From NCBI GenBank assembly GCA_964482725.1, contig CAYZYT010000003.1:116010-180009 (forward strand): DNA of 64,000 bases, written 5' to 3'. Position 1 is the stretch's first letter; every line of letters begins with the position of its first letter. Shown here one piece after another: positions 6,255 to 59,600 of this stretch. This DNA comes from an uncultured bacterium. GTDB taxonomy: Bacteria > Omnitrophota > Omnitrophia > Omnitrophales > Aquincolibacteriaceae. A model generated the notes under the pieces. The model did not search any database. It saw only the letters and a list, made by a program, of their open reading frames with translations, and was not told the DNA's origin. The translations under genes were made by a program, and so were the position numbers.

Positions 6255-6450
6255 AAGCAGGGTGTTGGATGGCGGAGGGTGGATGGCGCAAAAAGATGGG
6301 ATGGCGGGTATCGGGTGACGAAAAACAAAAGGTTTGACGCCATCCGCCCTCCTCCATCCGTTATCCTAAAATGTTTGTTCCCGCATCAATAATAGTCTGC
6401 GTATTGCCGTAACTATACCTAGGGTCTAAATAATTTTCAGAGGGGGAAGT

Positions 6451-8825: not shown

Positions 8826-8914
8826 AAATTGGGTGACGGATGGCGGAGGGCGTAAAACCAAAAACTCCATCCACCATCCTCCATCCGATGCGCACTTATA
8901 GAGGCTAAATAATT

Positions 8915-10750: not shown

Positions 10751-11016
10751 GTTGGTTGATACTCCGCGGACGGTTTAGTTTTTCTTGCACAAAACCTCTT
10801 CTGTCATTCAGTCGGTCCTTCCCAAGATGTAAGCCCTAGCATACCTTCCTGATTGAGTTCGCGGGATTTTGTGGTAGGATACGCCCTCTAGCAAAGGGGG
10901 GAAGGCCCCTTTGCCCGGTCAACGTACAACGGACAACGAAGATGACGTTGACCGTTGATCGTTGCGCCCGCAAATGGCGTTGTCCCCCATTAATTCACTC
11001 TTACGGAAGTTTTATC

Positions 11017-26224: not shown

Positions 26225-26400
26225 TCTTTGAAGAAATCAGTGATAGGTGCTGCGGAACTGCGAAAGCGGTTCACGCGGCTTGATAGGGAAGTGAGTCTCG
26301 CGGAAAGATCGCGGGAACTCCACGGTGCCGCCGCTGTAGATGAGAACGAAAGCGAAACAGCCACTGCTCCTTCGGGGGTGGGAAGGTTCGCGATTAGGAA
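26225..26400 (+). ncRNA. Cobalamin (adenosylcobalamin) riboswitch aptamer
   Basis: Conserved core AUAGGGAA (26283-26290) ... GGUGCCGCCGCUGUAGA (variant of CGGUCCCGCCACUGU) ... B12 box CAGCCACUGCUCCUUCGGGGGUGGGAAGGUUC (26358-26390). Close to the E. coli btuB leader (GACACUGCCAUUCGGUGGGAAGUC). Sits upstream of a btuB-like operon. Confidence 0.7.
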
Positions 26401-26540
26401 TGACAAAGCTCATCGAGTCAGAAGACCTGCCTGTTACACAACTCAATATTCAAAATCCTCCGTGCAGAGGAAGCAAAGGTGTCCCGATTCTCCTCTTCTG
26501 AAAATCGGGACCGCGCGGATCAATCAAATGATCCGCTGGC

Positions 26541-32726: not shown

Positions 32727-32735
32727 AAAATCGTG

Positions 32736-32810
32736 GAACGGGTAACGGGAAACGGGGAACGCATGACCAAACTCGTTTGCCGTTCCCCGTTCAGCGTTCC
32801 CCGATCCTTG
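32736..32810. repeat. REP-like hairpin repeat, gggtaacgggaaacgg / ccgttccccgttcagcgttcccc family, copy 1 (downstream of cobO)
   Basis: Imperfect ~75-nt palindrome, about 80% identical to 34547..34625; a related ggcaacggtaacg...cgttaccg hairpin lies at ~33540-33650. Confidence 0.6.
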
Positions 32811-34546: not shown

Positions 34547-34625
34547 AGCCGGGTAACGGGTAACGGGAAACGGCGAACGCATGCCGGTTTTCGTTCCCCG
34601 TTCAGCGTTCCCCGTTCCCCGAGAA
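34547..34625. repeat. REP-like hairpin repeat, gggtaacgggaaacgg family, copy 2 (downstream of folD)
   Basis: See 32736..32810. Confidence 0.6.
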
Positions 34626-39619: not shown

Positions 39620-40984
39620 ATGAATAAAAAACACGTAATGATCGTGGGGGGCGGCGTCTCTGGCCTGAGCACCGCCTTTTTTCTTTCCCGAAGAGCTTCC
39701 CGGGGACATCTTCCTCTCAAGATCACCGTACTCGAAGCTTCGAACCGTTTCGGTGGGGTGCTTCGTACGCTGGCCTGCGAAGATCTTCAGATGGAAGCCG
39801 GCGCGGATGCTTTCTATGCCGGCCCCAAGGATGATGTCATGGATCTTTGCCGTGAGCTGGATCTCCAGGACGATCTCATCGAAGCGGCGCCGTGTTTTCG
39901 GCATTTCTTCAGCGTTAAAAATAAAAAACCTTATCCTGTCCCCGGTCTTCCCGGATCTTTTGGGGACGTCCTGCGCCTTCTGAGTCATTCCCAGATGAGT
40001 TTCCTCGCGAAATGCCGGATGCTGGGGGAACCGTTCATCTCGCGCCGAAAAGAAAAGGGCGATGAAAGCCTCGCAGATTTCATCCGGCGCCGTCTTGGGC
40101 AGGGCTTCTTCCGGGAATTCGTAAAACCCCTGGTGCGGGGCGTTTACATGATGGACCCTGAAACTATGAGTCTGGAAGCGGCATTCCCGCGCTTACGGCA
40201 GGCCGAGAAAACCTGCGGGAGTCTTACGGCATCTTTTTTGAATAAGAAAAGTGAAAAGGACCCGCCAAAATTTTTCACTCTTAAACAAGGTCTTGAAGGA
40301 CTGATCCGGGCGCTCGAACGGGAATTGGAGCAATGCGAGTTTCGGCTCTCAACGCCTGTTCGTCAATGTGCCTTTCGCAAGGGGTGGGAAATTTTTCTGG
40401 AGAATGGCGAAGTTTTGCATGCGGATAGCCTGTTTCTTGCTATGAACGCTTGCGATGCCGCTCAATTGCTTTCCGGGAACGCTCCGGAACTTTCCGCGGG
40501 ACTCTCGGGTATCCGGTACGATTCGATCGCCACGGTGAATCTCATTTACAGGGTCGAAGACATGCCGTCCGGGGGCTGGGATCCCGGGTTCCTGGTGCCT
40601 ATGGAGGGCGAGCCGTATCCTTTTTCAAGTCTCAAATGGCTCGGCCCGAGCGCGGATGGAAAAACGTTTTCACTGCGAGCATTTCTTTCCGAGGCGATGA
40701 TGCCCGGGCTTTTTAACGAGACCGATGAAGTGCTTCAACGAAAGATCCGGATCTTTTTGAGTGACTCCTGTGGCATTCAGGCCAAGCCGTTGAGTGTCAG
40801 CATCCAGCGCTATCCGGATGCGTTGCCGCAGTATGAAACAGGCCATTTTGAGCGTGTGACACGGATCGAAAAAAGGGTACTTCAATATCCCGGGCTGCAC
40901 CTCACAGGGAATGGATTTCGCGGATTCGGTATTGCCGATTGTATTCACCAAGCTCGGATCGTTGCTTCCAGCCACCAGTTCTGA
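39620..40984 (+). CDS. hemY: FAD-dependent protoporphyrinogen/coproporphyrinogen oxidase (HemY/CgoX-like amine-oxidase fold)
   Basis: N-terminal dinucleotide fold VMIVGGGVSGLSTAFFL...ITVLEASNRFGGVLRT; 454 aa. Confidence 0.7.
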   Translation: MNKKHVMIVGGGVSGLSTAFFLSRRASRGHLPLKITVLEASNRFGGVLRTLACEDLQMEAGADAFYAGPKDDVMDLCRELDLQDDLIEAAPCFRHFFSVKNKKPYPVPGLPGSFGDVLRLLSHSQMSFLAKCRMLGEPFISRRKEKGDESLADFIRRRLGQGFFREFVKPLVRGVYMMDPETMSLEAAFPRLRQAEKTCGSLTASFLNKKSEKDPPKFFTLKQGLEGLIRALERELEQCEFRLSTPVRQCAFRKGWEIFLENGEVLHADSLFLAMNACDAAQLLSGNAPELSAGLSGIRYDSIATVNLIYRVEDMPSGGWDPGFLVPMEGEPYPFSSLKWLGPSADGKTFSLRAFLSEAMMPGLFNETDEVLQRKIRIFLSDSCGIQAKPLSVSIQRYPDALPQYETGHFERVTRIEKRVLQYPGLHLTGNGFRGFGIADCIHQARIVASSHQF

Positions 40985-41045
40985 TGGCTCCGAGGAAGAA
41001 ACCATTCCTAGTAGTACCTCCTTAAATGGGGTATAATTCCTCCCC

Positions 41046-43124
41046 ATGCAAATTCGAGAAAATCCCGTCTCTTCAAACTGTGCCTGCTCTTTGGAGGTCT
41101 CCTCGGAGGCCTCAAGCACGGCAAGTTCCCATCCATACAAACGCCTCCATCTTTTTCTGATCAAGCCCTCCAAGTACGATGATGAGGGGTATGTGATCCG
41201 CTATTGGAAAGGGGTCCTTCCCAGCAATACCCTTTCTTGTCTGAACGGCCTTAGCGAGGACGTTCGCGAACGGGGTGTCTTGGGTAAGGACCTGGCTTGG
41301 GAGATCACGCTGATCGATGATACGGTTCAAGGCATTCCTTATCGAAAGATCATTAAAGAAAACCATCGGGTCGGAACCAAAACCGTGGTCTGCCTGGTCG
41401 GTGTTCAGTCCAATCAGATGCCGCGCGCCGCGGATATCGCGATGAGATTCCGCATGGCCGGGATTGATGTTTTGTTGGGAGGGTTCCATGTCAGTGGCGT
41501 TGTGGCGACTTTGCCCGACCTTACCCCGGAACTCGTGACGCTCCGGAATGCCGGCGTAAGCCTTTCCGCAGGGGAAGCTGAAGGCGGGCATTGGGAGCAG
41601 ATGTTGAATGATGTGATCCATGATCGAATCAAGCCCATGTATAATTTCCTGAATGATATCCCGGATATTTCGAAAGCGCCTTTTCCGCGCATCAATCCTA
41701 AACATCAGACGCGTTACGCGCTCCAGCACTTCGGGACGCTCGACTGCGGCCGCGGTTGCCCCTTTGGGTGCAGTTTTTGTACGGTCATCAATGTCCAGGG
41801 TCGCAAGATGCGCTTCCGGGATGTCGATCTTCTGATCGAAACGGTCCGCGAAGGTTATCGCAGCCACAAGATCTCGCATTATTTTTTTACAGATGACAAT
41901 TTTTGCCGTCACAAGAACTGGGAAACGATCCTGGACCGTTTGATCGAGCTGAAAGAAAAAGAGGGGATCCCGTTCCATTTCATGATGCAGCTGGACACCC
42001 AGGCCCACACGGTGCCGAATTTTGTGGAAAAAGCGGCCCGGGCCGGCTGCCGGCAGGTCTTTATCGGGATGGAAAGCTTGAATCAGGAGAATCTCAAAGC
42101 TGCGAAGAAGAGCCAGAACGATATCGAAAATTTCAAAAAACTCGTCGATTCTTTTCATGAGGTCGGGATCGTTTGCCATTTAGCCTATATCATCGGGTTC
42201 CCTCTGGATACGGTGGAATCCGTCAAGCAAGACATTGAAAAACTCTTGTCCTTCGGTGCGGGGCAAGCTTCGTTTTTTATGATGACGCCGCTTCCGGGGG
42301 CTATGGATTATAAAAACGCTCTCGAGAAAGGGATGCTGCTGGACGCGGACCTTAATAATTATGACACCTTTCATGAAACCCATCGTCACCCGCGGATGAA
42401 ACCGGGGGAATGGCAGGTCGCTTACGAGGCGGCGTGGCAAGCCTTTTACAGCGTGGAGAACATGAAGAAGATCCTGGCCCGGGACCTCAAGGCGGATAAC
42501 TACTGGGGCATTTTTTCAAACTTCATGTGGTATAAGAATTCCATCGATGTGGAAGGCGGGCATCCGATGATCAGCGGTTTCTTTCGCTTGAAGGAACGTT
42601 TGGAGCGTCGGGCGGGCTATCCGATCGAAGGTCGTTGGGTCTATTCCAAACGGAGATTTTGGGATATTCTGCGTGCGGTGAAGGGCCGGTGGAAGCTGAC
42701 ACTCGAGCTTGAAGAAGTTTGGCTCGCGACGCGCCACCGAGGACCTCTCGAGCAGAAAGTGATCTCCGAGATCGCGCGAATGACTCAGTGCGCGAAGGAA
42801 TGGCGGGACCTCAGGACTTCGGAGCTTTTCCTCCTGTATCAGAAAGCCGCCACAGCCCTCGAAAAAAAGAATATTTACCGGTTTCGCATCCCATCACGTT
42901 TCCAGATCTGGATGAACAAGTGGAACCTTTTTTCGCTCCGATTGACTTCGACGCGTGAGCCGCTCCAGAAGTTTTGGGATCATGTTCAGGCATCTTGGAA
43001 ACGGGGGGACGTGCTGCGGGTCAACTATCTCCGGATGTTCCTTGCGATGATCGAGGAGTCCGTTTATTTCATTCGATTTATTCTTTCTATTGTTATCTCC
43101 GGGATCTTTTTAAGGAAACATTGA
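41046..43124 (+). CDS. B12-binding-domain radical SAM protein with C-terminal DUF4070-like extension (paralog 1)
   Basis: N-terminal cobalamin-binding Rossmann-like region and radical SAM core (HFGTLDCGRGCPFGCSFCTV). Paralogous to 43260..44879 along most of its length. About 30 extra N-terminal residues make the start uncertain. Confidence 0.75.
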   Translation: MQIRENPVSSNCACSLEVSSEASSTASSHPYKRLHLFLIKPSKYDDEGYVIRYWKGVLPSNTLSCLNGLSEDVRERGVLGKDLAWEITLIDDTVQGIPYRKIIKENHRVGTKTVVCLVGVQSNQMPRAADIAMRFRMAGIDVLLGGFHVSGVVATLPDLTPELVTLRNAGVSLSAGEAEGGHWEQMLNDVIHDRIKPMYNFLNDIPDISKAPFPRINPKHQTRYALQHFGTLDCGRGCPFGCSFCTVINVQGRKMRFRDVDLLIETVREGYRSHKISHYFFTDDNFCRHKNWETILDRLIELKEKEGIPFHFMMQLDTQAHTVPNFVEKAARAGCRQVFIGMESLNQENLKAAKKSQNDIENFKKLVDSFHEVGIVCHLAYIIGFPLDTVESVKQDIEKLLSFGAGQASFFMMTPLPGAMDYKNALEKGMLLDADLNNYDTFHETHRHPRMKPGEWQVAYEAAWQAFYSVENMKKILARDLKADNYWGIFSNFMWYKNSIDVEGGHPMISGFFRLKERLERRAGYPIEGRWVYSKRRFWDILRAVKGRWKLTLELEEVWLATRHRGPLEQKVISEIARMTQCAKEWRDLRTSELFLLYQKAATALEKKNIYRFRIPSRFQIWMNKWNLFSLRLTSTREPLQKFWDHVQASWKRGDVLRVNYLRMFLAMIEESVYFIRFILSIVISGIFLRKH

Positions 43125-43129
43125 AGACT

Positions 43130-43240
43130 GGTACTTAGTACATAGTACTTGGTACTTGGAAAAACAAGCCGGATTTCAAACGTTTTGCTATGTACCATGT
43201 ACTACGTACCAGGTGCTCAATCCTTTAGAATCTTAATCAG
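43130..43240. repeat. Imperfect inverted repeat built from GTAC heptad repeats (GTACnnn x4 / x3) between the two radical-SAM genes
   Basis: tgGTACttaGTACataGTACttgGTACttgg...ctatGTACcatGTACtacGTACcagg; the arms are approximately reverse-complementary. Confidence 0.7.
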
Positions 43241-43259
43241 AAGAAAAGGTCTGTGAATT

Positions 43260-44879
43260 TTGAAAGTCTATCTCATCAATCCCCGTTTTCAGCCGACGAT
43301 CTGGTCCTTTGAGGGGCTTCAGCCGCTTACCGGGACCCGTTTTTCTACGACGCCCCTCGGCCTTGCCACCGTGGCCGCTCTCACGCCGGAACCTTGGGAG
43401 GTCGAGATCAGTGACGAGAACGTCGAGGACATCAATTTTGATTCTGCTGCCGACCTGATCGCGATCAGTGCTTTCAATGTGCAGTACCACCGGGCGCTTG
43501 AGATCATCGCGGAATTCAGGAGGCGCGGCAAGAAGATCGCCGTCGGAGGGCCTTACAACAGCCTTTTCCCGGAAGCCTTCGAGGGGAAATGTGATTACCG
43601 GATCGTCGGGGAGGCTGAAGAGATATGGCCTGAATTCCTTCGCGATTTTGAACAAGGAAAAGCTCGGGAACTTTATAAGGCAGTCGCCAAGGCCGATATC
43701 AAAAAAAGTCCGATTCCGCGCTATGACCTCATTCGCGGCGACCGTTACAACATGTTCTCACTCCAGACCAGCCGGGGGTGTCCGTACAATTGCGAGTTCT
43801 GTGACATTATTGTGATGGACGGGCGCGTGCCGCGCACGAAGACCGTTTCGCAAGTGCTTGCGGAGGTGGATCATTGCGTGAAGCAGGGAGCTCATTACAT
43901 TGTTTTTGGCGACGCGAATTTCATCGGTAATATTCCGTACGCCCGGGAATTGCTCACAGCCCTGGTGGATTATTCAAAAAAGAACGGCTACCCGATCGAA
44001 TTCTCCTGCGAACTAACGATCAATGTGGCGCATCATCCGGACCTTCTGGAGCTGTTCCAGGAAGCGAATTTTTATGCGCTTTTTATCGGGATCGAATCAC
44101 CTCGGAAAGCGAGCCTTGTGGAGTCGGGGAAGGTGCAGAACACGCGCGAGAATGTGTTGGAAGATATCAAGCGCATCCACTCGTATCACCTGACCGTTGT
44201 GGCCGGGATGATCGTGGGTTTCGATGCGGACGATAAACTGATATTTAAGGAAACTTTCGATTTCTTGCAGGAGCTCGGAATCCCGTTCACCACCTGCGGG
44301 ACGCTCATGGCGCTCCCCAACACCCCCTTGATCAAGCGGCTTGAAGCGGAGGGCCGTCTCTTGAGCCTGGATTGGACGGAGACCAAGGGGCACGGGTCCT
44401 CAGACTGTAATTTCGTCCCCAAACTGATGACCCAGGAAGAACTCCATCAAGGTTATAACTGGCTGAGTCGATGTCTTTACCGGTACGACACTTATGCAGA
44501 TCGTCTGGTGACGGCCTTGAACCGTTTCCGGAATCTGAATCCGGAACACAAACGCGCGTCGTTAGATTTTAAATTTACGAGCCTTCTGATCAAGCTCGCG
44601 GCTTATTATCTGCTGACCTTTGATTTTGTGCGGATGAGATTTTTTACCAGGACCTTTTGGCGCGTGGCGAAGGGCGGGCCGTTCTCGATGAGTAAGTGGC
44701 TGGAATTTTTTCGCTGGATCGCAACGCACCGGGCTTTTCGAAAATATGTGACCGAAACCCAAGGGATCCCGGAAGGACAGGATCCGAAGAAACCGCCCTT
44801 TGAAGGGGCCGGAGTTTCTGAAGATTCGAAAATGCAATCGACCCCAACTGAAAGAACTCCTACAGGGGTGGCCTTATGA
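43260..44879 (+). CDS. B12-binding-domain radical SAM protein with DUF4070-like C-terminus (paralog 2)
   Basis: ..LQTSRGCPYNCEFCDIIVMDGR.. radical SAM motif; N-terminal B12-binding region (..DLIAISAFNVQYHRALEIIAEFRRRGKKIAVGGPY..). Confidence 0.8.
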   Translation: MKVYLINPRFQPTIWSFEGLQPLTGTRFSTTPLGLATVAALTPEPWEVEISDENVEDINFDSAADLIAISAFNVQYHRALEIIAEFRRRGKKIAVGGPYNSLFPEAFEGKCDYRIVGEAEEIWPEFLRDFEQGKARELYKAVAKADIKKSPIPRYDLIRGDRYNMFSLQTSRGCPYNCEFCDIIVMDGRVPRTKTVSQVLAEVDHCVKQGAHYIVFGDANFIGNIPYARELLTALVDYSKKNGYPIEFSCELTINVAHHPDLLELFQEANFYALFIGIESPRKASLVESGKVQNTRENVLEDIKRIHSYHLTVVAGMIVGFDADDKLIFKETFDFLQELGIPFTTCGTLMALPNTPLIKRLEAEGRLLSLDWTETKGHGSSDCNFVPKLMTQEELHQGYNWLSRCLYRYDTYADRLVTALNRFRNLNPEHKRASLDFKFTSLLIKLAAYYLLTFDFVRMRFFTRTFWRVAKGGPFSMSKWLEFFRWIATHRAFRKYVTETQGIPEGQDPKKPPFEGAGVSEDSKMQSTPTERTPTGVAL

Positions 44880-45532
44880 TGAAGGTGACAAGCAAGATCC
44901 CTCTCGATAAACGGGCATGGCCCGGCGTCGTATTTTTGGGAATCCTCATGATCCTGGAGCGAGCCTGGCACATCCCGTATGTATTTCCAGCTCTGGGGCT
45001 TCTCCTCGTGGCGCATCTTCTTTTTTTTAGGGATCCACAACGGGAATCGCCGAGAGAACAAGGGCTTCTCGCTCCTGCGGACGGAACCGTGTCGAAGATC
45101 GACGAGGTCTTTGAGGACCGGTTCCTTCACGAACAAGCGGTCCGCATTCGTATCTTCCTTTCGGTCTTTGACGTTCATACCACGCGTGCGCCTTTGGCCG
45201 GCATTATCAAATATCAGAATTACGTGAAGGGAAAGTTCCTCAACGCTCTGCGCAAAGATGCTTTTGATCACAACGAATCCAATTGGATCGGGATCGAGAA
45301 TCGCGCGCGGCGGGTCCTGGTGCGTCAGTTGACCGGCGCGATCGCGCGGCGTATCTACTCTGACGTAGTGATCGGACAGGTGATGGGACGAGGGGAAAAG
45401 CTGGGCATGATCTGCTACGGGTCCGGGGTTGAGATCACGATCCCCAAGAGGATGTTCCGGGAGAGTGTTCGGGTGGGGCAGCATGTCGCCGGCGGGGTCA
45501 CGGTCCTCGGGACGTGGGTCGAGGAGAATTAA
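44876..45532 (+). CDS. psd: Phosphatidylserine decarboxylase-family proenzyme (short, archaetidylserine-decarboxylase-like form)
   Basis: ..FLSVFDVHTTRAPLAGII.. and the C-terminal ..MICYGSGVEI.. self-cleavage-type motif; overlaps the previous stop by 4 nt. Confidence 0.75.
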   Translation: MMKVTSKIPLDKRAWPGVVFLGILMILERAWHIPYVFPALGLLLVAHLLFFRDPQRESPREQGLLAPADGTVSKIDEVFEDRFLHEQAVRIRIFLSVFDVHTTRAPLAGIIKYQNYVKGKFLNALRKDAFDHNESNWIGIENRARRVLVRQLTGAIARRIYSDVVIGQVMGRGEKLGMICYGSGVEITIPKRMFRESVRVGQHVAGGVTVLGTWVEEN

Positions 45533-45536
45533 GACC

Positions 45537-46277
45537 ATGAAGAAACGTTTTTATTTTACGAGCGCCGCTTTTCCCAACATGATCACGATGCTCAATCTCG
45601 TGGCCGGTTTTTTTTCCATTCTGATGAGCGTCCAGGAAAAATATGAATATGCCGTCTGGCTTGTTTTTCTTGCGCTCATTCTGGATTCGTTGGACGGTCA
45701 TGTGGCCCGGATCTTTGGGAATGAAACGGAATTTGGGCGAGAATTGGATTCGCTTGCCGATGCGGTTTCTTTCGTTGTGGCGCCCTGCATGCTTGTCTAC
45801 AAGGCTTTTTTTCAGAACTCTCCCATGGCGCTTCTTTTGGTCATCGTGTTTTATCTTTGCGCCGGGATCTTTCGTTTGGCGAGGTTCAATGTGAGTCCGA
45901 CCCACGGAGGCTGTTTCGAAGGACTTCCGACGCCGGCTGCCGCCCTGACGCTCATGATGACCATGCTGGCTTTTCATAAGAACCTGTGGACCGACCGTTC
46001 TTTTTCCCTGATAAGCGAAGTGTTTCTTATGACCGCGCTTGGTTTTCTCATGGTGAGTGATATCCCTTACCCGAAGGTCTCCGCTATCAAGTTCCGTTCC
46101 TGGAGGACTTTGTTCGTGGTGCAGGTTGCCGCATTTATTGCCGTGTTTTTCTATCTTAATGTTGAAAGTGCGATCGCCTCGATCTTTTTGACATTTATTG
46201 TGCTGTCTCCGTTCTATTGTGTGTCTTTCCATAAAGCCGTAGGTGAGGATGCCCCGGATGCGGGAGGGAGCGCTTAA
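45537..46277 (+). CDS. pssA: CDP-diacylglycerol--serine O-phosphatidyltransferase (CDP-alcohol phosphatidyltransferase family)
   Basis: GAGGAG RBS; CDP-OH_P_transf motif ..DSLDGHVARIFGNETEFGRELDSLADAVSF..; 6-7 TM helices. Confidence 0.85.
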   Translation: MKKRFYFTSAAFPNMITMLNLVAGFFSILMSVQEKYEYAVWLVFLALILDSLDGHVARIFGNETEFGRELDSLADAVSFVVAPCMLVYKAFFQNSPMALLLVIVFYLCAGIFRLARFNVSPTHGGCFEGLPTPAAALTLMMTMLAFHKNLWTDRSFSLISEVFLMTALGFLMVSDIPYPKVSAIKFRSWRTLFVVQVAAFIAVFFYLNVESAIASIFLTFIVLSPFYCVSFHKAVGEDAPDAGGSA

Positions 46278-46894
46278 TGCTGATCGGGATCTTGACTGGT
46301 TTTTTGGCGTCCTGTTTTGGCTGGCAGATCGATCTGATCGCGATTCAGCGCGGTCTCAAACGGGGGCGCATAGCGGCTTTTTTGGTGGGGTGTGGTGCGA
46401 TCCTGGCGGACATGATATTCCTTTCGGTCGGTTTCACAGGCACCCAACCCCTTTTAGACCACCCAGAATGGTGGGGGATTATCCGATGGCTGGGGATTGG
46501 GGTGATCTTAGTGTTGGCGGCACGTGGTTTTTGGGGCCATAGCCAACCCCGGAAGCAGGACGAAGAGGTGAGCAAAAGGAATCCGACGAAAAACTTTCTC
46601 GTCGGATTCTTGGTGGTCATCACGAATCCCGTGGTTTTCCTGATGTGGGTTGGGATCATCGGTTTTTTGAGGACCCATTTCCCCGAGGCGCGTGAGCCTT
46701 GGTTCAAGGAGCTCTTTCTGGGCGGTTTTCTGATCGGGGCCCTGCTTTGGTTTATTCCTCTCGCTTTCATTTTTTTAAAGAAATTAGAAGGCTGGAGTGA
46801 GGAGAATCACTCGTTCCTCTCGCGGCTTTCTTCCGGGACGCTTGTTTTAGTCGCCCTCTACTTGATCTTTTTTGAAAAACTCAGTTTTTCTTGA
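46277..46894 (+). CDS. LysE/RhtB-family amino-acid exporter
   Basis: 205-aa 6-TM protein with a LysE-type translocator pattern; start overlaps the pssA stop. Confidence 0.65.
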   Translation: MLIGILTGFLASCFGWQIDLIAIQRGLKRGRIAAFLVGCGAILADMIFLSVGFTGTQPLLDHPEWWGIIRWLGIGVILVLAARGFWGHSQPRKQDEEVSKRNPTKNFLVGFLVVITNPVVFLMWVGIIGFLRTHFPEAREPWFKELFLGGFLIGALLWFIPLAFIFLKKLEGWSEENHSFLSRLSSGTLVLVALYLIFFEKLSFS

Positions 46895-49797: not shown

Positions 49798-49983
49798 AAG
49801 CCAAGAACATAAACGCTAAATCCTAAGCTCTAGAAAAATCCAAAAAGCAAAGTCTTAAAAGAACCAGGGTTCTGAATTTTTGGTTTTGAATGTTTGAGTT
49901 TATTTAGAGTTTAGTGTTTTATGTTTAGAGTTTTCTATGGACATCGGCGTGCGTTTTGCACATTTTCTTAAAATAGAGAGGGT

Positions 49984-50231: not shown

Positions 50232-50268
50232 AGGCGTGGGGCGATCTCTTGGCCCCGCGCCTTTTTTT
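50232..50268 (+). terminator. Rho-independent terminator
   Basis: ggcgtggggc / gccccgcgcc stem (one G-U pair), 9-nt loop, T8 run. Confidence 0.7.
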
Positions 50269-50496
50269 TCTTTCCCCCTGAGTTCCAGCGTCGGCGTAAG
50301 TGCCGGCTTGTCGGCTCCCCCTGAATGCGATGGGGTGTGTGTTTTCGGATAAAAGAAAGTAGCGGTCAGCTGCTCTTCTCGTTGTTTCTCTCTCTGAAGT
50401 CGCTCGTTCTAATCCATGACGGTTAGGCCCGCATTCATTTTCTCCCCAGTTCAATGATTCTTGAAGGGCCGAATTCTATGATTATTTGATTAACGA

Positions 50497-50540
50497 TGCT
50501 ATAAAGTGCTATAAGCGCTGCTATAAATTGTTATAAACGG
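50497..50540 (+). promoter_or_regulatory. Four phased GCTATAA(A/G) direct repeats (10-12 bp spacing) in the promoter region of the giant gene
   Basis: gctataaag-t-gctataagc-gct-gctataaat-t-gttataaac, about 80-120 nt upstream of ATG 50617; AT-rich context. Confidence 0.45.
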
Positions 50541-50616
50541 TGTTTTTTATTAAAAAAGTGATGCGGAGCTATTGATTTACCTCATTTTGTAGAGTATTCT
50601 TCTATTAGGGAAGAAA

Positions 50617-53600
50617 ATGAAAAATAAAAATGTTGTAGACCAACTATGGGAATGCAGTGACTCGAAACGTGGAATGGGGAATGGGGAACGTTCTGCGAAT
50701 TTCGAACTGCAGAAGACAGACCAGAGACTAGAGACTGCAGCCTGGAATTTTGGAACGTGTGACAAGCGTTTGGTTTATGAGTCTCCGGTCTCCAGTCTCT
50801 TGTCTCGAGTCGTTTTCAAAAAAGCGGTGGCGCTTGCGACAGCCTTTGTATTCCTTTGGTCGATGTGCATCACGCCGGTGATGGCGGAAACGATCAATGT
50901 CCAGGGCGGCAGTATTGATGTGAATGTTCAGGACAATACGACGAACTGGAATGTCCAGGGCAATCCCGTGTGGAACGTCCCCGAGTTCAATGTGGCGCAA
51001 GGAAACATTTATAACATCGCGGGTCTTAATCAGGGCTCCAGTCTTGCGCTTCTTGTGAACGGCGGCAGTGCCTCCAACATCTTCGGAACGATGAACCTCT
51101 CCAATCTGGATTTCATTCTTCAAAATATCGCCGGCATCAACATCGGCGGAAGTGCCATGATCAATCTCTCGAACGCGTCCCTAATCGCCTCGACATTGCC
51201 ACTCAACCTGAGCACGACGGATTTTCTCTCAAGGGATTATCAGTTCAGCGGGCAGGGCGGGTTCCTGATGAATGCTGGGAAGATCGTCGGGACAAATGCC
51301 GATCTTGTGGCCCTGGTTGCGAACGCCATCGAAAACCGCGGGACGATCGAAGTACCGATGGGTACCGTGGCGCTTGCTGCGGGGAATACGGTCACCGTTG
51401 GCATCTCGCCGGACGGCATGGTCTCGATCGGTGTCGATGAAGCGACAGCGAACAAAATGGGCTTGAAGGATCAGATCAAGAACAGTGGAAGTATCACGGC
51501 CGACGGAGGCCGGGTGGTCCTGAATGCTCAGGCCATGGACGGGCTCTTTGACAAAGCCATCAGCATTGAACGGAGCGGGAACTCTGTCGATGCAGTCCGG
51601 GCGGATAACGGTACTGTCGATTTCCAATCCATGGATGATGTCTTTAACGATGCGGTTATCAAAGCATCGGGCGGGACCGTCAAGATCGCATCAACCCAAG
51701 GCGCCGTGATGAATGCCGGAACCCTTGAAGCAAACAAGGGCAAAGTTGAAGTGACAGCTGCCCAAGAAGTGACGAATAAGGCGAAGATCGAGGCGATCGA
51801 AGGAGCGATCAAGATCATCTCTGAGAAAAGCGACGTGGTGAATCAGGGGACGATGAAGGCGGACAAGGGTGAGATCAAGATCGCCTCGACCCAGGGTGCC
51901 GTGACGAATGCCGGGACTGTGGTGGCGGCTAAAGGTAAAGTCGAAGTCGTGGCCGCTAAAGACGTGACGAATCAAGCGACCGTTCAGGCGGATGAGGGTT
52001 CGATCATCGTCGTGTCCACGAAAAGAGATGTGGTGAATCAGGGGACAATGAAGTCAGAGAAAGGCGAGGTCAAGATCACCTCCACTCAAGGGAACGTGAC
52101 GAATGCCGGGACGGTTGCCGCGGATCATGGCAAGATCGAAGTGACCGCTAAAAAGGATATTGTGAACGACGCCATCATGAGCGGCGTGGGAGGAGAGATC
52201 AAGGTCAATTCCACCGAAGGGGCTATCACGAATAAAGGCACGCTGAAAGCCGACGACGGAGCCATCAGACTCACGGCGGCGCAAACGGTTTATAACAAAA
52301 AACTTATGGATGCGCGACAGGGCAAGATCGAAGTTGAGTCCGTAAAGAGTGACGTGGTGAACGAAGGGACGATGGCGGCTGAAAAAGGCGAGATCAAAGT
52401 CACGTCTCTGGAGGGCAAGATCACGAACGCCGGCATCATGCAGGCCCAGAGCGGCAATATCAAGCTCACCGCCGAACAGGCGGTTTACAACAAAATGCTC
52501 ATCGAAGCGCTTGGCGGTAAGGTGGAAGTGACCTCCAAGAAAGCGGAGGTTACGAACGATGGTACGCTTGACGCGGTGGGAGGAAAAGTCGCGCTGACTG
52601 CGGCGGGCGCAGTGGAAACAAAGGGCGTTTTGAAAGCGGCGGAAGTGACCGAGCGTGGCGCGAGCTTCAAGATGGGCGGGCGGGTCGAAGTCGGGACGAT
52701 GGATATGGATAACCTCGACAATCGCGCGGACATCGCGGCGCTGGCCGAACTTTCCGGTGTTTTTTCAGACGAAGATGACATTACCGTCCTCGGCGATTTC
52801 AGTCTTGTCGGAGATACCACGATCTGGACCGATTCCAATGTGACTGGGACGGACGGGACGCTCACCTGGGATGCGGATCATACCGTGACTGGGAACGGCC
52901 ACGACCTCACGCTCAAAGTCTCCAAGAATTCCACCGTCGGCGCGATCACAGGCGTGGATCTTCTCACGCTCGACAAGAACACCGACAAGACGCCGACTTA
53001 TACCGGCTCCACCGCCAATGACATCAGCGTGAACACTTTCAAGACCATGAACGGCGTGACCTTTTCCAAGACCGTCACCGGAAGAGACGGCCTCGCCGCG
53101 AATACAGCCTTTCTTGTCTACGATGTGACCCAACTCCAGGGCATGGCCAATGACCTGGATGCCTTTTATGAAGTCGCCAACAACATTGACGCCTCCGAGA
53201 CCTCAAGCTGGAATGCCGGTGCCGGTTTCGATCCTGTGGGAAATGTCGATCCGGGGACCGAGTTTACGGGAACGTTTGACGGTGCAAACCACACCATTTC
53301 TGATCTTAAGATCAGCACCTCTTCCGACAATGTCGGCCTTTTCGGCTATATCTCCGGGGCCGGAGCCATGATCTCAGATATCCGGCTCTTGAATGTCGCT
53401 GTCGCGGGCGGTACTTACGTTGGCGGACTCGTAGGATTTAATGCCGGCGGCTCCGTTGATAATGCAGGCAGCAACGGGACTGTTAGTGGTAGTAATGTCG
53501 GCGGGCTAGTGGGACAGAATGAAGGTTTTATCAGTAACTCTTACGGCGGCGGAACCCTCAGCGGTGGCAATGTCGGCGGCTTCGTGGGATACAATACGGG

Positions 53601-56600
53601 CACTATCAGCTACTCCTACAGTACGGGGAGTGTCAGCGGCGGTAACAATGTCGGCGGATTGGTGGCGGTGAATAGTGGACCTATCAGTTACTCCTATAGC
53701 AATGCAGATGTTTTTAGCAGCAATTCTTCTATCGGCGGGTTGGTGGGAAATAACTCCTTTGCTACCATCAGTAACTCCTACAGCACCGGACGCGTTTTCG
53801 GCGGTCAGTATGTGGGCGGGTTGGTGGGTATCAACGATAACGGTTTTGTCAATAATTCCTACAGCACAGGAAATGTTGTTGGAAGTGGTTCTTATTATAG
53901 CAATGGTCAGTACATCGGCGGGTTGGTGGGAGGTAACTGGTATGGCTCGGTCACTGATTCCTACAGTACGGGAAGTGTAAGCGGCGGAATCCGTGTGGGG
54001 GGATTGGTGGGTATGAACGATTGGAGTTCCATCAATAATTCCTATGCGACAGGAAATGTATCAGGCAATACCGCGTCTAACAATTTAGTCGGGCCTCTCA
54101 CAGGTACTCAGGGCACTATTAATAATTCCTACTACGTGTCAGGCACTGCCAGCAATAGTGGCGGCGGTACAGTCAATACCTATGGAACCGGGACTGATAC
54201 CGTAGCCAATTTTCAGAATCCGGCTCACACAGCCTTGGTTTACACAGCGGGTGCTTCTCCTTGGACATTCAATGCCTCCAACTGGAAGGTCGTGACCTAC
54301 GATGATGATTATCCCTATCTGACGTTCGAGGAGAATGTTAATACGGCGGCTCAACTTAAAGCTATCTCTGGCGGTGATTTAACGGCCCGATACAGGCAGG
54401 GCGCCGATATCGATCTGACCAGCGTAGATTTTACCTCCTATATCATCGGTAACACTACGGCTTTTACGGGCACATACAATGGCAATGGTTATACTATTTC
54501 TAATCTTACAATAAGTGCGCCGACCACGGATAATGTCGGGCTCTTCGGATCCACATCCAACGCGACGATCCTTTCCAACATACATCTCCAGAACGTGGAT
54601 ATTTCCGGTCAATCGAGCGTCGGCGGATTGGTGGGGTCCAATAGCGGTGCTTTTATCAGCAATTCATCGGTTTCCGGGATTGTAAGCAGTACAGGTGATT
54701 ATGTAGGCGGGCTTGCGGGATCGAGCTTTGGCTCTATCAGTAATTCTTACAGCTCCGGCAGTGTAACAGGCGGTGGCGATTATGCCGGCGGGTTGGTGGG
54801 AAGTGTTTTTTTTAGCACCCTCAGTAACACCTACAGTACTTCGAGCGTAAGCGGTCATGATTATGTGGGCGGGTTGGTGGCATACAGTGAAGGTATAACC
54901 ATTCTTAACTCCTACAGCACCGGGAATGTAAGCGGTGCTAGCTATGTCGGTGGTTTGCAGGGATTTAGTGATGGTTCCATCGATAATTCGTTTAGTACAG
55001 GACGTGTCACTGCTACCGGTAGTTATGTGGGCGGTTTGGTGGGAGGAAATTGGAGCACAATTACCAATTCCGGATGGTATGACAACGCCGGAGATAGTGC
55101 CACTTATGCCATCGGAAGCGCCTCAGCGGACATCACCTACAATGTCGGGAAAGCAGGTACGGACGGAGGCGGCAAATATTACTATGCATCTTCTGACTCG
55201 ACCTGGTTCTTCGATTCCTCGAAGGATATTTATGATACGGGCGCGACTCCGTGGGATATTGCCGCAACGCATGATGGCTCTGCTTGGGCGATGTCGGGGA
55301 GTAATAGCGCGTTCCCGCTCCTGCAGATGCGTTACTCCACGACGATTACTGACGCTGTTCAGCTCCAGTTGATGTTCCTTGATCTCGCAGGTAATTACAC
55401 TCTCGCCAACAACATCAGCGCTGCGGAAACCTCGACCTGGAACGCTGGTCTCGGATTCGATCCGGTGGGAGACAGTACGAATGAATTCAGGGGAATTTTT
55501 GACGGTAATTCGAAGGTGATCACAGGCCTTACGATCAACAGAGAAACCGAGAGTTATGTCGGCCTTTTTGGGCAAACAAGCGCCGCGACAATTTCAGACA
55601 TCGGCCTCTCTGACGTCAATGTCAAAGGCCTCGAGTTTACCGGCGGACTGGTGGGCTACAATTACAACAGCACGATCGAAAATTCTTTTTCAGCAGGTAC
55701 CGTGACGGGCGCTGATGCGAGTTCCCAAATCGGAGGTCTCGTGGGTAAAAATGATTCTTCAGGCGAGATTACCCATTCTTATTCCACCGGGACTGTCACT
55801 GCCGGCAGCGGGAGTTATCGTGTCGGCGGGCTTGTGGGTTATGCCGGCTCTACAAGTAATATCAACGATTCCTATTCCACGGCGGACGTGACAGGCGTCG
55901 GCGATAGTTCTTATCTCGGCGGTCTTTTGGGCTTTAATAATGGCGGTGCCATCGCCAGCTCTTACGCGTCAGGTACCGTAACAGGCGGCGTTGGAAGCTA
56001 CAATATGGGCGGCCTTGTCGGGACGAATTATAACGGCGGCACGATCAATAAGTCCTACTCCACCGGGGCTGTCACGGGAAATGACGACAGTTATCAACTG
56101 GGCGGACTTGTGGGGCAAAACGGTACTGCCGGCGCTGCAAGCGTGGTCAGCAACTCTTATTCCACGAGTAACGTAACGGGCGGCAGCAATAGTTATCGTC
56201 TCGGTGGACTTGTGGGAGAGAACAGCTCCAGCGATATTACCAACGCCTATTCATCCGGAACTGTCGCAGGTGCAGACGGTACCTCCCAAGTGGGCGGTCT
56301 TGTGGGTTTTAATAATTCAGGCGACGTCACGAACTCCTTTTCGGCAGGCGCCGTCACCGGCGGTACCGGCAGCGACCACATCGGCGGTCTTGTCGGTGAT
56401 GATGTCACCGGCACCTACGTCAACAACTGGTATGTTTCCACCAGCCAGGGGATTAGCAATAAAGCGGATGTTGTAGGCGAGGTGAGCAAGGAGACCGACG
56501 GCGCGAGCGCTTTCTTTGATTCTGCGCATCCGGTCTATTGGCTTAATGGCATTCCCTCAGGGACGGCTGCTTGGGATATCCATACGACTTACAATGCCAG

Positions 56601-59600
56601 CAATATATGGGCGATGCAGGGGACAGGCGAAATGCTTCCGATGCTCCAGATGCGCTATGCGACGGACATCACGGATGCCGTATCGTTACAGCTGATGTTC
56701 CTCAACCTCGCAGGCAATTACACCCTCGCAAATAACATCGATGCTTCGGAGACTGCGACCTGGAATGCCGGTCTTGGCTTCGATCCGGTGGGCAATAACG
56801 CGGGCCGGTTCACGGGTTCGTTCGACGGGAACGGATATTCCATCAGCGGGCTGATCATCGATCGGACCACGGATCATACCGGTCTCTTCGGTTACGCGCA
56901 GTCCTCCAACAGTTTCACCGATGTTAACCTCACGGGCGTGTCGATCACGGGCGCCAATAACGTTGGCGGCTTGATCGGAACGAGTGACGGAGTGAGCGTG
57001 TCGGGTTCTTCCGTGGCCGGCGCGGTGAGCGGCTCGGGCCAGCAGATCGGCGGCCTCATCGGTTTTATGACGGAGGGAATTCTTTCGGACTCCTACACGA
57101 CGGCTTCCGTGACCGCTACGGGAACGAGCGATAGCGTGGGTGGCATTGTCGGCGGGCTTACAGCCGGGACGATCGAGAGAGCTTATGCCTCCGGAGATAT
57201 TTCAGGTTATGGGAATGTGGGCGGCATTGCCGGATATGCGGACACTTCCAGCACGATCAAAAATGTTTACTCCACCGGACACGTGACGGGGACTTCCTGG
57301 TGCATCGGCGGTATCGTTGGCTGGTTTGATTCGAGCACGCTTGAAAATTCCTACGCCTCGGGAAGGGTCGAGGGTGGCTCGGGCGACAGCGGGGATGTGG
57401 GCGGACTTGTAGGAACCAACAAATCGACCAGCACGGTGAAGAATTCTTTCGCGACGGGACTGGTCACCGGCCAAACCGATGTGGGCGGCGCAATCGGCGA
57501 TAACGCCAGCGCTACGAATGTGAACAACTGGTGGTACAGCGCCACCGCCCAGGGCGTCGGGGCCGGTTCCGCGTCGGGAGTGAGCCAGGAGACGAACGGT
57601 GCTGCAGCTTTCTACGACCCCAGCCATCCAGTGTATAACGGCACCACAACCTGGGATTTCGCCACACCGGTTTGGGTGGAAACCGCGAATACCTATCCTC
57701 TCTTAGCGTTTCAATTCACAGTCATCTCGACTCCTGAACAGTTAGAGGCGGTGTCGAGTGGTAATCTTGCCGGATACTATCGGCTTGGAGACGATATTGA
57801 TCTGGCCGGTATTGATTTTACGCCTTATATGATCGGGAATGATGCCACGGCATTCTCAGGTATCTTTGCGGGGGCCGGGCATACGATATCCAATCTATCC
57901 ATAAACAGCGGATCGAATAACGTGGGATTGTTCGGATATACGAATGGCGCCCGATTTTCAAATATTGGATTGATCAATACCGATGTCACAGGCACCGGTT
58001 ATGCCACCGGGGGATTAGTGGGGGTGAGTTACTACTCCGCCATAGCCCATGCCTATTCCTTGGGGACTGTAACGGGTTCTTTTATCACCGGCGCCTTGGT
58101 GGGCTATAATTTCTCTTCGCCTATTTCTAATTCTTATGCCGCGAGTACTGTCGTGGGTTATCAAACCACCGGCGGCTTGGTAGGAAGTAATTCCTACTCC
58201 GACATCTCTAATTCCTACTCCACGGGCACTGTCACAGGGACGGGAACCGGCGGAGGTGATTATTCCACCGGCGGCTTAGTGGGATGGAATGAAGCATCCA
58301 CCATCTTTAGTTCTTATTCCGCGAGCGCCGTAACAGGTGCGGGTTATTCCACCGGCGGTTTAGTGGGATGGAATGGTTACGCCATCATCTCGAACTCCTA
58401 TTCCGTCGGTCCGGTCATAGGAACTGGTTATGCCACCGGCGGCTTAGCCGGAGTTAATAATTTGTCCGAGATCACCAACTCCTACTCTGCGGGTACTGTG
58501 GCAGGCAATAATGCCGCCGGAGGGGTGGTGGGATTTAACCGCTATTCCACCATCACCAACTCCTTTGCCACCGGGAGGGTGGATGGTTCTCTGTACATCG
58601 GCGGCCTTGTGGGCGACGATTTCAGTGGCACCTATGCCAACAGCGGTTGGTACAAAGATCCCGCCGGCGATGCCGTCTACGCCATAGGGGACACTTCGAC
58701 GGACGCTACCTATAACGTAGGAAAGTCCGGTACAGATTCAGGGGACCTACATTACTTTTCTACTGCCACCCCGAGCTGGTTCTACGATAAAACGCAGGAC
58801 ATTTATGATACAGGCGCGACGCCGTGGGATTTTGATGCGGATGGTGTTTCGGCTGGACATAACGGCAACTGGATCATGGCGGGCCTGCCGCACCTGCAGA
58901 ATGAATGGACGGACACCATTACCAACGTCGCGCAACTCCAGATGATGGCGCTTGATCTTGATGCCAATTACACCCTCGCCAATAATATCGATGCTTCGGA
59001 TACCGTCAACTGGAACGCTGGCCTCGGCTTTGATCCGGTGGGGTATTCGACCATTGTGAATTCGATGGACCATCCTTATACCGGAAATTTTGATGGGAAT
59101 TCCCATACGATCACGGGGCTTACGATCAATCGTCCCACAGAGGATTTCGTGGGTCTTTTTGGAGGTATCTCGGGGAATGTACACGATGTCGGGCTTACCA
59201 ATGTGTCTGTCACAGGGGCTGCGTATGCCAGCGGCTTAGTTGCCATGAACCTTGGTACGATCGATAAATCATATTCACAAGGTGCCGTTAGCGGTTCAGA
59301 CGCTGTTGGCGTGCTATGTGGATATAATGGATATCTCTCGGGCTCTATTTCGAATTCCTATTCAACGGGAACAGTTCGCACCAGTTGGAGAGACGTGGGG
59401 GGACTGGTCGGGACCAATGCCGGCATCATTCTCAACAGCTATTCATCGGCTGCTGTGACAGGAGGATCGCTTACCACTTCCGGGGGTCTCGTGGGGTATT
59501 TCCCCGCAGGGAGTATCTCTAACAGCTACGCAACGGGGATTGCCACAGGTCCCAGCAATGTGGGCGGGCTGATTGGCTATTATAGTGCCGGTACGCTGAC

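Follow-up and report, generated by a model that had tools for sequence, protein, structure and literature searches.

A heptad-repeat hairpin with GTAC cores between two radical SAM genes of an uncultured Omnitrophota bacterium, one of at least eight period-7 hairpins in a 64-kb window

We examined a heptad-repeat element with GTAC cores (the GTAC element) that lies between two radical SAM genes in a 64,000-nucleotide (nt) stretch of DNA from an uncultured Omnitrophota bacterium (GenBank assembly GCA_964482725.1, contig CAYZYT010000003.1, positions 116,010 to 180,009 of the forward strand). The whole stretch is referred to below as the window, and positions are counted from its first letter. 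The genes at the locus are co-oriented and run in the order amine oxidase, radical SAM 1, radical SAM 2, phosphatidylserine decarboxylase, phosphatidylserine synthase and LysE; the closest homologues with a source name were labelled Candidatus Omnitrophota. The C-terminus of the upstream radical SAM protein (...SGIFLRKH*) is kept in relatives, and the N-terminus of the downstream protein ((M)KVYLINPRF), which carries B12-binding and DUF4070 domains, is kept in the homologue alignment. A hairpin formed by the GTAC element occupies most of the 135-nt spacer between the two genes, starting 3-5 nt past the upstream stop codon, depending on the pairing register, and ending 42-47 nt ahead of the next start codon. 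A second hairpin was predicted in the same spacer, across the TTG start codon. The features of the spacer and its borders are as follows.

43122..43124, + strand: TGA stop codon of the upstream radical SAM gene, 692 amino acids (41046-43124; open reading frame (ORF) list, Pfam PF04055)
43128..43217, + strand: whole heptad-repeat hairpin (folds, inverted-repeat pairs I1 and I2)
43129..43159, + strand: left arm, 4.4 copies of TGGTACT (TGGTACT TAGTACA TAGTACT TGGTACT TGG; Tandem Repeats Finder, period 7, 83% matches; pattern matches)
43160..43189, + strand: central 30-nt spacer or loop, with a short inner AAAAC/GUUUU pairing predicted (sequence, folds)
43190..43216, + strand: right arm, inverted, ATGTACC ATGTACT ACGTACC AGGTGCT (Tandem Repeats Finder, period 7, 3.1 copies; minus-strand TRGTACW matches)
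43260..43262, + strand: TTG start codon of the downstream B12-binding radical SAM gene, 539 amino acids (43260-44879; ORF list, Pfam PF02310/PF04055/PF13282)

From 43128 onward the element reads cTGGTACT TAGTACA TAGTACT TGGTACT TGG, followed by 30 nt and then by the four heptads of the right arm. The left-arm GTAC cores start at 43131, 43138, 43145 and 43152 and span 43131-43155, confirming the exact 7-nt spacing of four GTAC tetramers described in an earlier note on this DNA. The three inverted copies reported there are also present, with exact cores starting at 43192, 43199 and 43206 and a degenerate fourth core, GTGC, at 43213; they begin 36 nt after the last left-arm GTAC, and not at the distance of about 45 nt given in that note. 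The reverse complement of the right arm reads TGGTACG TAGTACA TGGTACA, and the heptad consensus T-R-G-T-A-C-W is well preserved in both arms. The pattern GTAC-N3-GTAC-N3-GTAC (at most one mismatch) was matched five times in the window, four of them at the element, against 0.02 in dinucleotide-preserving shuffles. All seven window matches to the heptad dimer TRGTACWTRGTACW (at most two mismatches; 0.6 expected) fell at the element, and the right arm was matched on the minus strand only, indicating that the two arrays are genuinely inverted.

The earlier note had proposed a long imperfect hairpin with self-complementary GTAC cores, to be abandoned if the arms failed to align as complements. The arms do pair, over 21 nt at 90% (43128-43148 with 43192-43212) and over 33 nt at 79%, and the predicted folds are more stable than those of shuffled sequence. 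The RNA fold of the element region reached -40.3 kcal/mol (z = -3.3) and that of a 101-nt excerpt -33.9 kcal/mol (z = -4.1), with z = -3.8 for the DNA fold of the region. Two pairing registers, one heptad apart, were predicted because the arms are periodic, and the mismatches lie at variable heptad positions, without covarying. The element sequence is identical in an independent public assembly (L001) and is therefore no assembly artefact.

Tandem Repeats Finder was applied to the whole window, so that the period-7 excess reported here was measured on 64 kb of genome. It identified 13 period-7 arrays, whereas dinucleotide-preserving shuffles contained 1.34 each (maximum 5), with all other periods at background. 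An independent autocorrelation scan returned eight segments with period 7, while periods 5, 6 and 8-12 gave none, and a more lenient scan added one locus. Every array found belongs to an inverted pair, and these pairs occupy eight window loci, all of which fold to long imperfect stems (z from -2.3 to -6.7). The heptad types at these loci are mutually unrelated and comprise GGATGGC, AACGGGN, NNCAACG, GTAC, CTAA/TTAG and GAGACT types. What the eight hairpins share is the 7-nt period and the inversion, not GTAC, indicating that the GTAC core is incidental. The earlier note had also allowed that its reading would fail if such arrays were ubiquitous low-complexity noise in this genome; heptad arrays are indeed common in the window, but they form a structured intergenic class and not low-complexity noise. 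Seven of the eight hairpins lie wholly outside ORFs and one overlaps an annotated start, in a window of which 89% is covered by ORFs, and together they make up about 10% of its non-coding DNA. Six begin 2-8 nt past a stop codon, even with spacer slack of 46-94 nt; by our own arithmetic on these slacks, the joint chance of such starts under uniform placement is roughly 1e-4. The hairpins other than the GTAC element are listed below.

6259..6367, + strand: hairpin a1, GGATGGC/GGAGGGT, 4 nt past the stop of a LacI-like gene (-58.4 kcal/mol, z = -6.7)
8828..8889, + strand: hairpin a2, GGATGGC family, 2 nt past the stop of an FGGY kinase gene (z = -4.4)
10917..10968, + strand: hairpin c, NNCAACG/CGTTGNN, overlapping the annotated start of an ABC-F gene (z = -3.7)
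32735..32807, + strand: hairpin b1, AACGGGN/CGTTCCC, 8 nt past the stop of a BtuR-like gene (z = -3.7)
34550..34621, + strand: hairpin b2, AACGGGN family, 4 nt past the FolD stop and ending 8 nt ahead of the PanB start
49801..49940, + strand: hairpin e, AT-rich, NNNCTAA/TTAGNNN, 3 nt past the stop of a GH57 gene (z = -3.3)
50714..50813, + strand: hairpin f, GAGACT/AGTCTC, in the 5' region of a giant ORF (z = -3.3)

Hairpins a1 and a2, and likewise b1 and b2, are homologous copies at separate loci that have irregular units and loop starts in common; b1 and b2, for example, both have CGTTCAG as an irregular unit and open their loops with GAACGCATG. This homology indicates that whole hairpins are sometimes duplicated into new spacers. 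Families a and b thus have two copies each in the 64-kb window, and the GTAC type has one there and a second insertion site in a relative, L093. G-tracts are present in the GGATGGC and AACGGGN families and absent from the GTAC heptads. Hairpin e contains eight G-U pairs and folds more stably as the sense strand, by 14 kcal/mol, than as the antisense strand, and a further array, of GGAATGG units, lies near hairpin f at 50666-50691. As a separate observation, several hairpins of the class are preceded by an A-rich run (TAAAAGC...), which, read on the opposite strand, is a T-run following the hairpin.

Sequence of the orthologous spacer was obtained from ten relatives with a downstream-gene protein identity of 79-93%; for one more, P0001 (91%), the comparison used spacer length alone (51 nt). 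Among these 11 relatives, only L002 (93%) and L082/L083 (89%) have a long spacer with GTAC-type heptads, which are partly decayed and differ in copy number and sequence (GGTACTT AGTACTT AGTCCTT in L002; GTACCTT GTCAGTG GTACACG GTACTTA in L082). The other eight have unrelated, GTAC-free spacers of 3-67 nt in a cluster that is otherwise unchanged. Since the GTAC heptads are missing from most relatives, the element must be labile and dispensable. Carriers were distributed patchily over a weakly resolved neighbour-joining tree and did not form one clade. L093 (86%) has no element between its radical SAM genes and carries a GTAC-type hairpin one spacer upstream instead.

L093 3930-4012: GTAC-type hairpin (...TGGTACA TAGTACA TAG ... 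CAAGTAC CATGTAC C...), directly after the stop of a BtuR-like gene

Across 174 kb of sequence from the clade, GTAC-N3-GTAC was found only in four elements, in spacers adjoining the two radical SAM genes of four genomes. With respect to period-7 arrays of any sequence, about 100 kb from relatives was nearly devoid of them, indicating a burst specific to the lineage of the window. We also used control loci taken from the matches listed in a protein-alignment scan of a genome collection with general peptide patterns, which comprised L002 and 79 distant homologues; the 79 distant loci, from other phyla, contained about 1.8 period-7 arrays per 100 kb, compared with 12.5 in the window. In this Omnitrophota lineage the class has multiplied within intergenic DNA, and its expansion is recent relative to relatives with 86-91% protein identity at the locus.

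Scanning metagenome contigs for four GTAC heptads returned at least 120 loci, with a G+C content of 33-71% among the matches listed. All kinds of GTAC-containing heptad were represented, many arrays ran well past four units, and the arrays adjoined all sorts of genes. An inverted partner was present within 150 nt at 18 of 80 loci analysed from these at least 120, compared with none in a complement-only control, and at least 11 of 21 paired arrays began no more than 15 nt from the stop codon of a long ORF. Comparable heptad arrays and inverted pairs were also found on viral contigs (L219, L215/L223); an exact 18-mer of the element was absent from viral contigs, and a degenerate heptad pattern retrieved generic heptad repeats only. 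Inverted heptad pairs of other sequence occurred in Acidobacteriota control loci (L008 6429-6519 and L037 5522-5626). Their presence in unrelated phyla and in phage contigs indicates that the architecture is widespread and not specific to Omnitrophota.

Several described systems resemble the hairpins of the window. Among the long simple repeats of many bacteria, heptamers are over-represented, with polymerase slippage as the proposed cause, and a 2007 survey of prokaryotic repeats is cited for a general heptamer excess (PMC4692102). In a study centred on G-quadruplexes, Rehm et al. 2015 (PMC4692102) described intergenic heptamers in convergent pairs, with the units GGGAATC in Xanthomonas and GGGGAYT in Nostoc. 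Xanthomonas has 70-75 convergent array pairs capable of forming stem-loops, between aligned ORFs and no more than 50 bp from stop codons; the arrays are transcribed, and their length and sequence vary between species (PMC4692102). Like these, the GTAC element consists of at least three degenerate 7-nt copies (typically about four per array), lies between co-oriented ORFs near the upstream stop codon, forms a convergent pair capable of a stem-loop, varies in length and sequence between related genomes and occurs in a lineage with a period-7 excess, lineage-specific abundance being a further common trait. It differs in that the GTAC heptad is not G-rich and has no capacity for a G-quadruplex, and the window differs in that every array observed has an inverted partner and in combining several heptad types that are unrelated. 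We found no description of such repeats for Omnitrophota in the literature searched.

In the tRNA-Leu intron of Nostoc, the P6b stem is built of 7-nt motifs and varies through indels of 7 and 14 nt, on one side or on both (PMC4476775). As in our hairpins, its strands consist of a 7-nt motif and the complement, and unrelated motif classes yield the same structure with length changes in 7- or 14-nt steps. P6b, however, sits in a group I intron, whereas the GTAC hairpin sits in an intercistronic spacer without surrounding conserved RNA: Rfam gave no match at E <= 1 in 43050-43300, and its sole match in the window at the gathering threshold was a cobalamin riboswitch away from the element. The short tandemly repeated repetitive (STRR) heptanucleotide repeats of Calothrix are a further example, as cited in PMC4692102, and heptanucleotide elements have been noted in Geobacter and Beggiatoaceae (PMC2700814, PMC4679880). 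Heptamer direct repeats of TAACTGA are abundant, intergenic and patchy in Beggiatoaceae and cyanobacteria (PMC4679880). They share with our element the patchy phylogeny and the shorter, array-free spacers of related genomes, but they are nearly all direct (one indirect repeat was reported), use a single heptamer and lie just upstream of start codons, whereas the window arrays are inverted pairs of many heptads beside stop codons.

The repetitive extragenic palindromic (REP) sequences and bacterial interspersed mosaic elements of enterobacteria are likewise dispersed, imperfect extragenic palindromes within operons, often just past stop codons. When a REP lies less than 16 nt from a stop codon, ribosomes stall and translation is lowered (Liang et al. 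2015, in the summary given by PMC12306157). The GTAC hairpin, 3-5 nt past its stop codon, fits this geometry, and a likeness in function would follow by analogy. REPs differ in having a fixed consensus of about 35 nt, no internal 7-nt periodicity and a link to REP-associated tyrosine transposases (RAYTs), and no RAYT (IS200/IS605-like) transposase was seen among the Pfam-annotated ORFs of the window.

The GTAC element fits an already described class, that of heptanucleotide repeats in intergenic DNA and the inverted pairs they form (Xanthomonas, Nostoc, STRR). Our preferred reading, to which we assign a probability of roughly 55%, is that it is a heptad-repeat hairpin, made of two degenerate heptanucleotide arrays in inverted orientation, which has grown by slippage and forms a REP-like stem-loop in a polycistronic mRNA. 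Replication slippage would lengthen and shorten the arms in 7-nt steps, copying from arm to arm, for example by template switching inside the hairpin, would keep them complementary, and whole hairpins would now and then be copied to new spacers; such occasional copying would explain the family pairs of the window as well as the displaced GTAC-type hairpin of L093. The element would be transcribed with the co-oriented cluster; we infer co-transcription because neither a promoter nor a terminator signal separates the two genes and the corresponding spacers of relatives are short. The mRNA would then carry an imperfect stem of about 30 bp starting 3-5 nt past the UGA that ends the upstream radical SAM gene. 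If it behaves like the REP elements of Escherichia coli, this stem may act as a barrier to 3'-to-5' exonucleases, and, at less than 15 nt from the stop codon, it may hinder the terminating ribosome and alter how strongly the two radical SAM genes are expressed relative to each other. Whatever the effect, it is modulatory and dispensable, and it requires neither the GTAC sequence nor a GTAC-specific protein.

Several points weigh against this reading. The sense and antisense RNA folds of the GTAC element are about equally stable (-33.7 and -32.1 kcal/mol), and strand preference within the class is mixed, with three hairpins favouring the sense strand (much more stable, with many G-U pairs) and three slightly favouring the antisense strand; given this inconsistency, it is possible that the structure exists in the DNA, or that none has been selected. 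Transcription, RNA folding in vivo and an effect on either radical SAM gene are what we infer from sequence, and slippage with arm copying is a mechanism suggested by the literature and by the sequence pattern. The three or four homologous copies of the GTAC element differ by heptad indels and register shifts, which makes their alignment for covariation arbitrary. The absence of the element from most close relatives fits a neutral by-product equally well.

A strong rival, although less likely than our preferred reading, is that the hairpin is a neutral by-product of mutation, with heptad slippage and arm-to-arm copying acting in intergenic DNA that tolerates them and without effect on the neighbouring genes. 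Consistent with this are the eight of 11 relatives in which the cluster is unaltered without the element, the fast divergence of heptads between the window, L002 and L082, the mismatches that do not covary, the lineage-specific burst and the inconsistent strand preference of the fold energies. The placement of the hairpins argues the other way, since six of eight lie immediately behind a stop codon despite the available slack and a stop-proximal bias recurs in unrelated metagenome loci. Such tight placement suggests function or constraint; avoidance of the downstream promoter and ribosome-binding site could be an alternative cause.

It is less probable still that the hairpins are mobile, resembling REPs or miniature inverted-repeat transposable elements, and that a transposase acting in trans, or recombination, copies these non-autonomous units to new spacers, possibly across phyla, with the GTAC type as one family. 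The homologous pairs a1/a2 and b1/b2 at different loci and the displaced GTAC-type hairpin of L093 are in keeping with such copying, as is a hairpin on metagenome contig OFRM01000288.1 (L163, positions 1144-1222). This GTAC hairpin lies between rplF and rplR, 6 nt past a stop codon, on a contig judged from L6 homologues to belong to Patescibacteria, and it shares 25 consecutive identical nt (GTACTTAGTACATAGTACTTGGTAC) with the left arm of the window element, in the same orientation relative to the genes. Matches of this kind are expected 0.0009 times if the spacers are independent, but the identity is far less surprising, at about 0.1 by our rough estimate, if both arrays derive from one simple common unit, TWR-GTAC. 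We regard it as no more than suggestive; horizontal spread or convergence could lie behind it. Neither a transposase nor a RAYT-like gene was found among the annotated ORFs of the window, terminal repeats and target-site duplications were not seen, and local slippage alone accounts for most of the variation. A broader proposal, in which heptad hairpins are a distinct, self-propagating REP-like class that is inserted or retained right behind stop codons, multiplies in lineage-specific bursts (about 10% of the non-coding DNA in the window) and moves between phyla, would draw on the 25-nt identity with the Patescibacteria hairpin and on the displaced copy of L093, but strikes us as similarly improbable; if true, it would mean that the 7-nt period reflects the copying mechanism and not polymerase slippage.

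The earlier note gave a repeated protein-binding motif as one possibility, and a regulatory array of this kind would have a ribbon-helix-helix repressor or an RNA-binding protein reading the TRGTACW heptads and controlling the radical SAM lipid cluster. The omega repressor of pSM19035 is a precedent, with operators of 7-bp units bound in direct and inverted orientation. The well-preserved consensus of both arms and the confinement of GTAC-N3-GTAC to the radical SAM spacers of four genomes would agree with such a site. Omega heptads, however, are contiguous, lie in promoters, have a single sequence and are accompanied by a cognate ribbon-helix-helix gene nearby, none of which applies to the GTAC element, where the arrays are 36 nt apart, no plus-strand promoter-like site was recognised, no candidate regulator gene is adjacent and the heptads differ by locus. 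Seven other intergenic sites, behind unrelated genes, show the same architecture built from unrelated heptads, most relatives with the same cluster (eight of 11) have no element, and metagenome arrays of GTAC heptads lie beside all sorts of genes. We consider a binding array very improbable and rejected an omega-type operator. Because intergenic heptad repeats are already known as a class in other bacteria, the GTAC hairpin is no evidence for a GTAC-specific binding site or recombination signal.

An equally remote reading is that of a terminator or attenuator lacking a U-tract that ends or lowers transcription between the radical SAM genes, for which the stable hairpin right after the stop codon and the second predicted hairpin over the TTG start might speak, but the stem is AT-rich and mismatched with no T-run after it, canonical terminators exist in this genome (for example a G+C-rich stem with T8 at 50233-50269), and the downstream gene is conserved only 3-67 nt behind the upstream gene in relatives, which argues for co-transcription. 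A terminator and promoter scan returned no terminator and no plus-strand promoter signal at the element, and one minus-strand promoter-like site nearby was at chance level. With neither a G+C-rich stem nor a U-tract, an intrinsic (Rho-independent) terminator was rejected, in agreement with the earlier note, which had described the structure as no canonical terminator.

Two further suggestions of that note were discarded. A recombination element separating duplicated genes is at odds with the flanking radical SAM proteins, which are 25% identical and adjacent in every relative examined, and are thus old paralogues and not the result of a recent duplication. A GTAC restriction-modification target, for which a methyltransferase or restriction gene had been proposed as a check, was rejected on window data: no such gene or domain was seen among the annotated ORFs, and GTAC is not depleted, with an observed/expected ratio of 0.89 that is unremarkable among palindromic tetramers. 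The GTAC array is thereby removed as a false lead: it is neither an operator, a recombination site nor a restriction-modification target of the radical SAM lipid cluster. At the same time, the excess of heptanucleotide repeats in bacteria, itself poorly understood, is extended to an uncultivated phylum, and comparison of genomes as close as these could reveal how such hairpins originate and whether they affect operon expression.

The region 39620-46894 surrounding the element is a conserved lipid-type cluster, in which the amine oxidase is protoporphyrinogen-oxidase-like or phytoene-desaturase-like and both radical SAM proteins are of the B12 type. Both match every NCBIfam family only far under the cut-off, and homologues of the downstream protein with 36-49% identity were found in Acidobacteriota, Binatia, Planctomycetota and others. 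The function of this protein is possibly the modification of lipid tails. The downstream radical SAM gene starts with TTG in the window (43260), L002, L087, L093, L088 and L085, with GTG in L082, L084 and L091, and with ATG in L092; this near-universal use of TTG or GTG suggests consistently weak translation initiation. Directly upstream of the first radical SAM start, a conserved GGGG-TATAAT-N4-5-CCCC-ATG arrangement was identified at 41027-41048 and in L002 (~1758-1782), L093 (~4040-4073) and L082 (~765-788). It places a perfect -10-like TATAAT 9 nt ahead of the ATG and within a small GGGG/CCCC hairpin, and could point to a transcript with no leader or a very short one, or to a structure masking the start codon.

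The cobalamin riboswitch matched by Rfam (RF00174, 79.7 bits) lies at 26228-26448 on the + strand, upstream of an operon that comprises genes for a TonB-dependent receptor, TonB, a periplasmic binding protein, FecCD, an ABC ATPase and a BtuR-like protein. This B12-uptake block is found directly upstream of the B12-dependent radical SAM pair in some relatives.

The giant gene with hairpin f in its 5' region corresponds to a + strand reading frame at 50593-64000 in which more than 4,469 codons follow without a stop until the window ends. It has a tandem repeat of 84 nt at 58260-58447 and a signal-peptide-like stretch near 50800. At 50498-50539, some 80 nt ahead of its first ATG, there are four direct repeats of GCTATAAA-like units at a spacing of 10-12 nt, about one helical turn, which could be a regulator-binding array or a promoter region.

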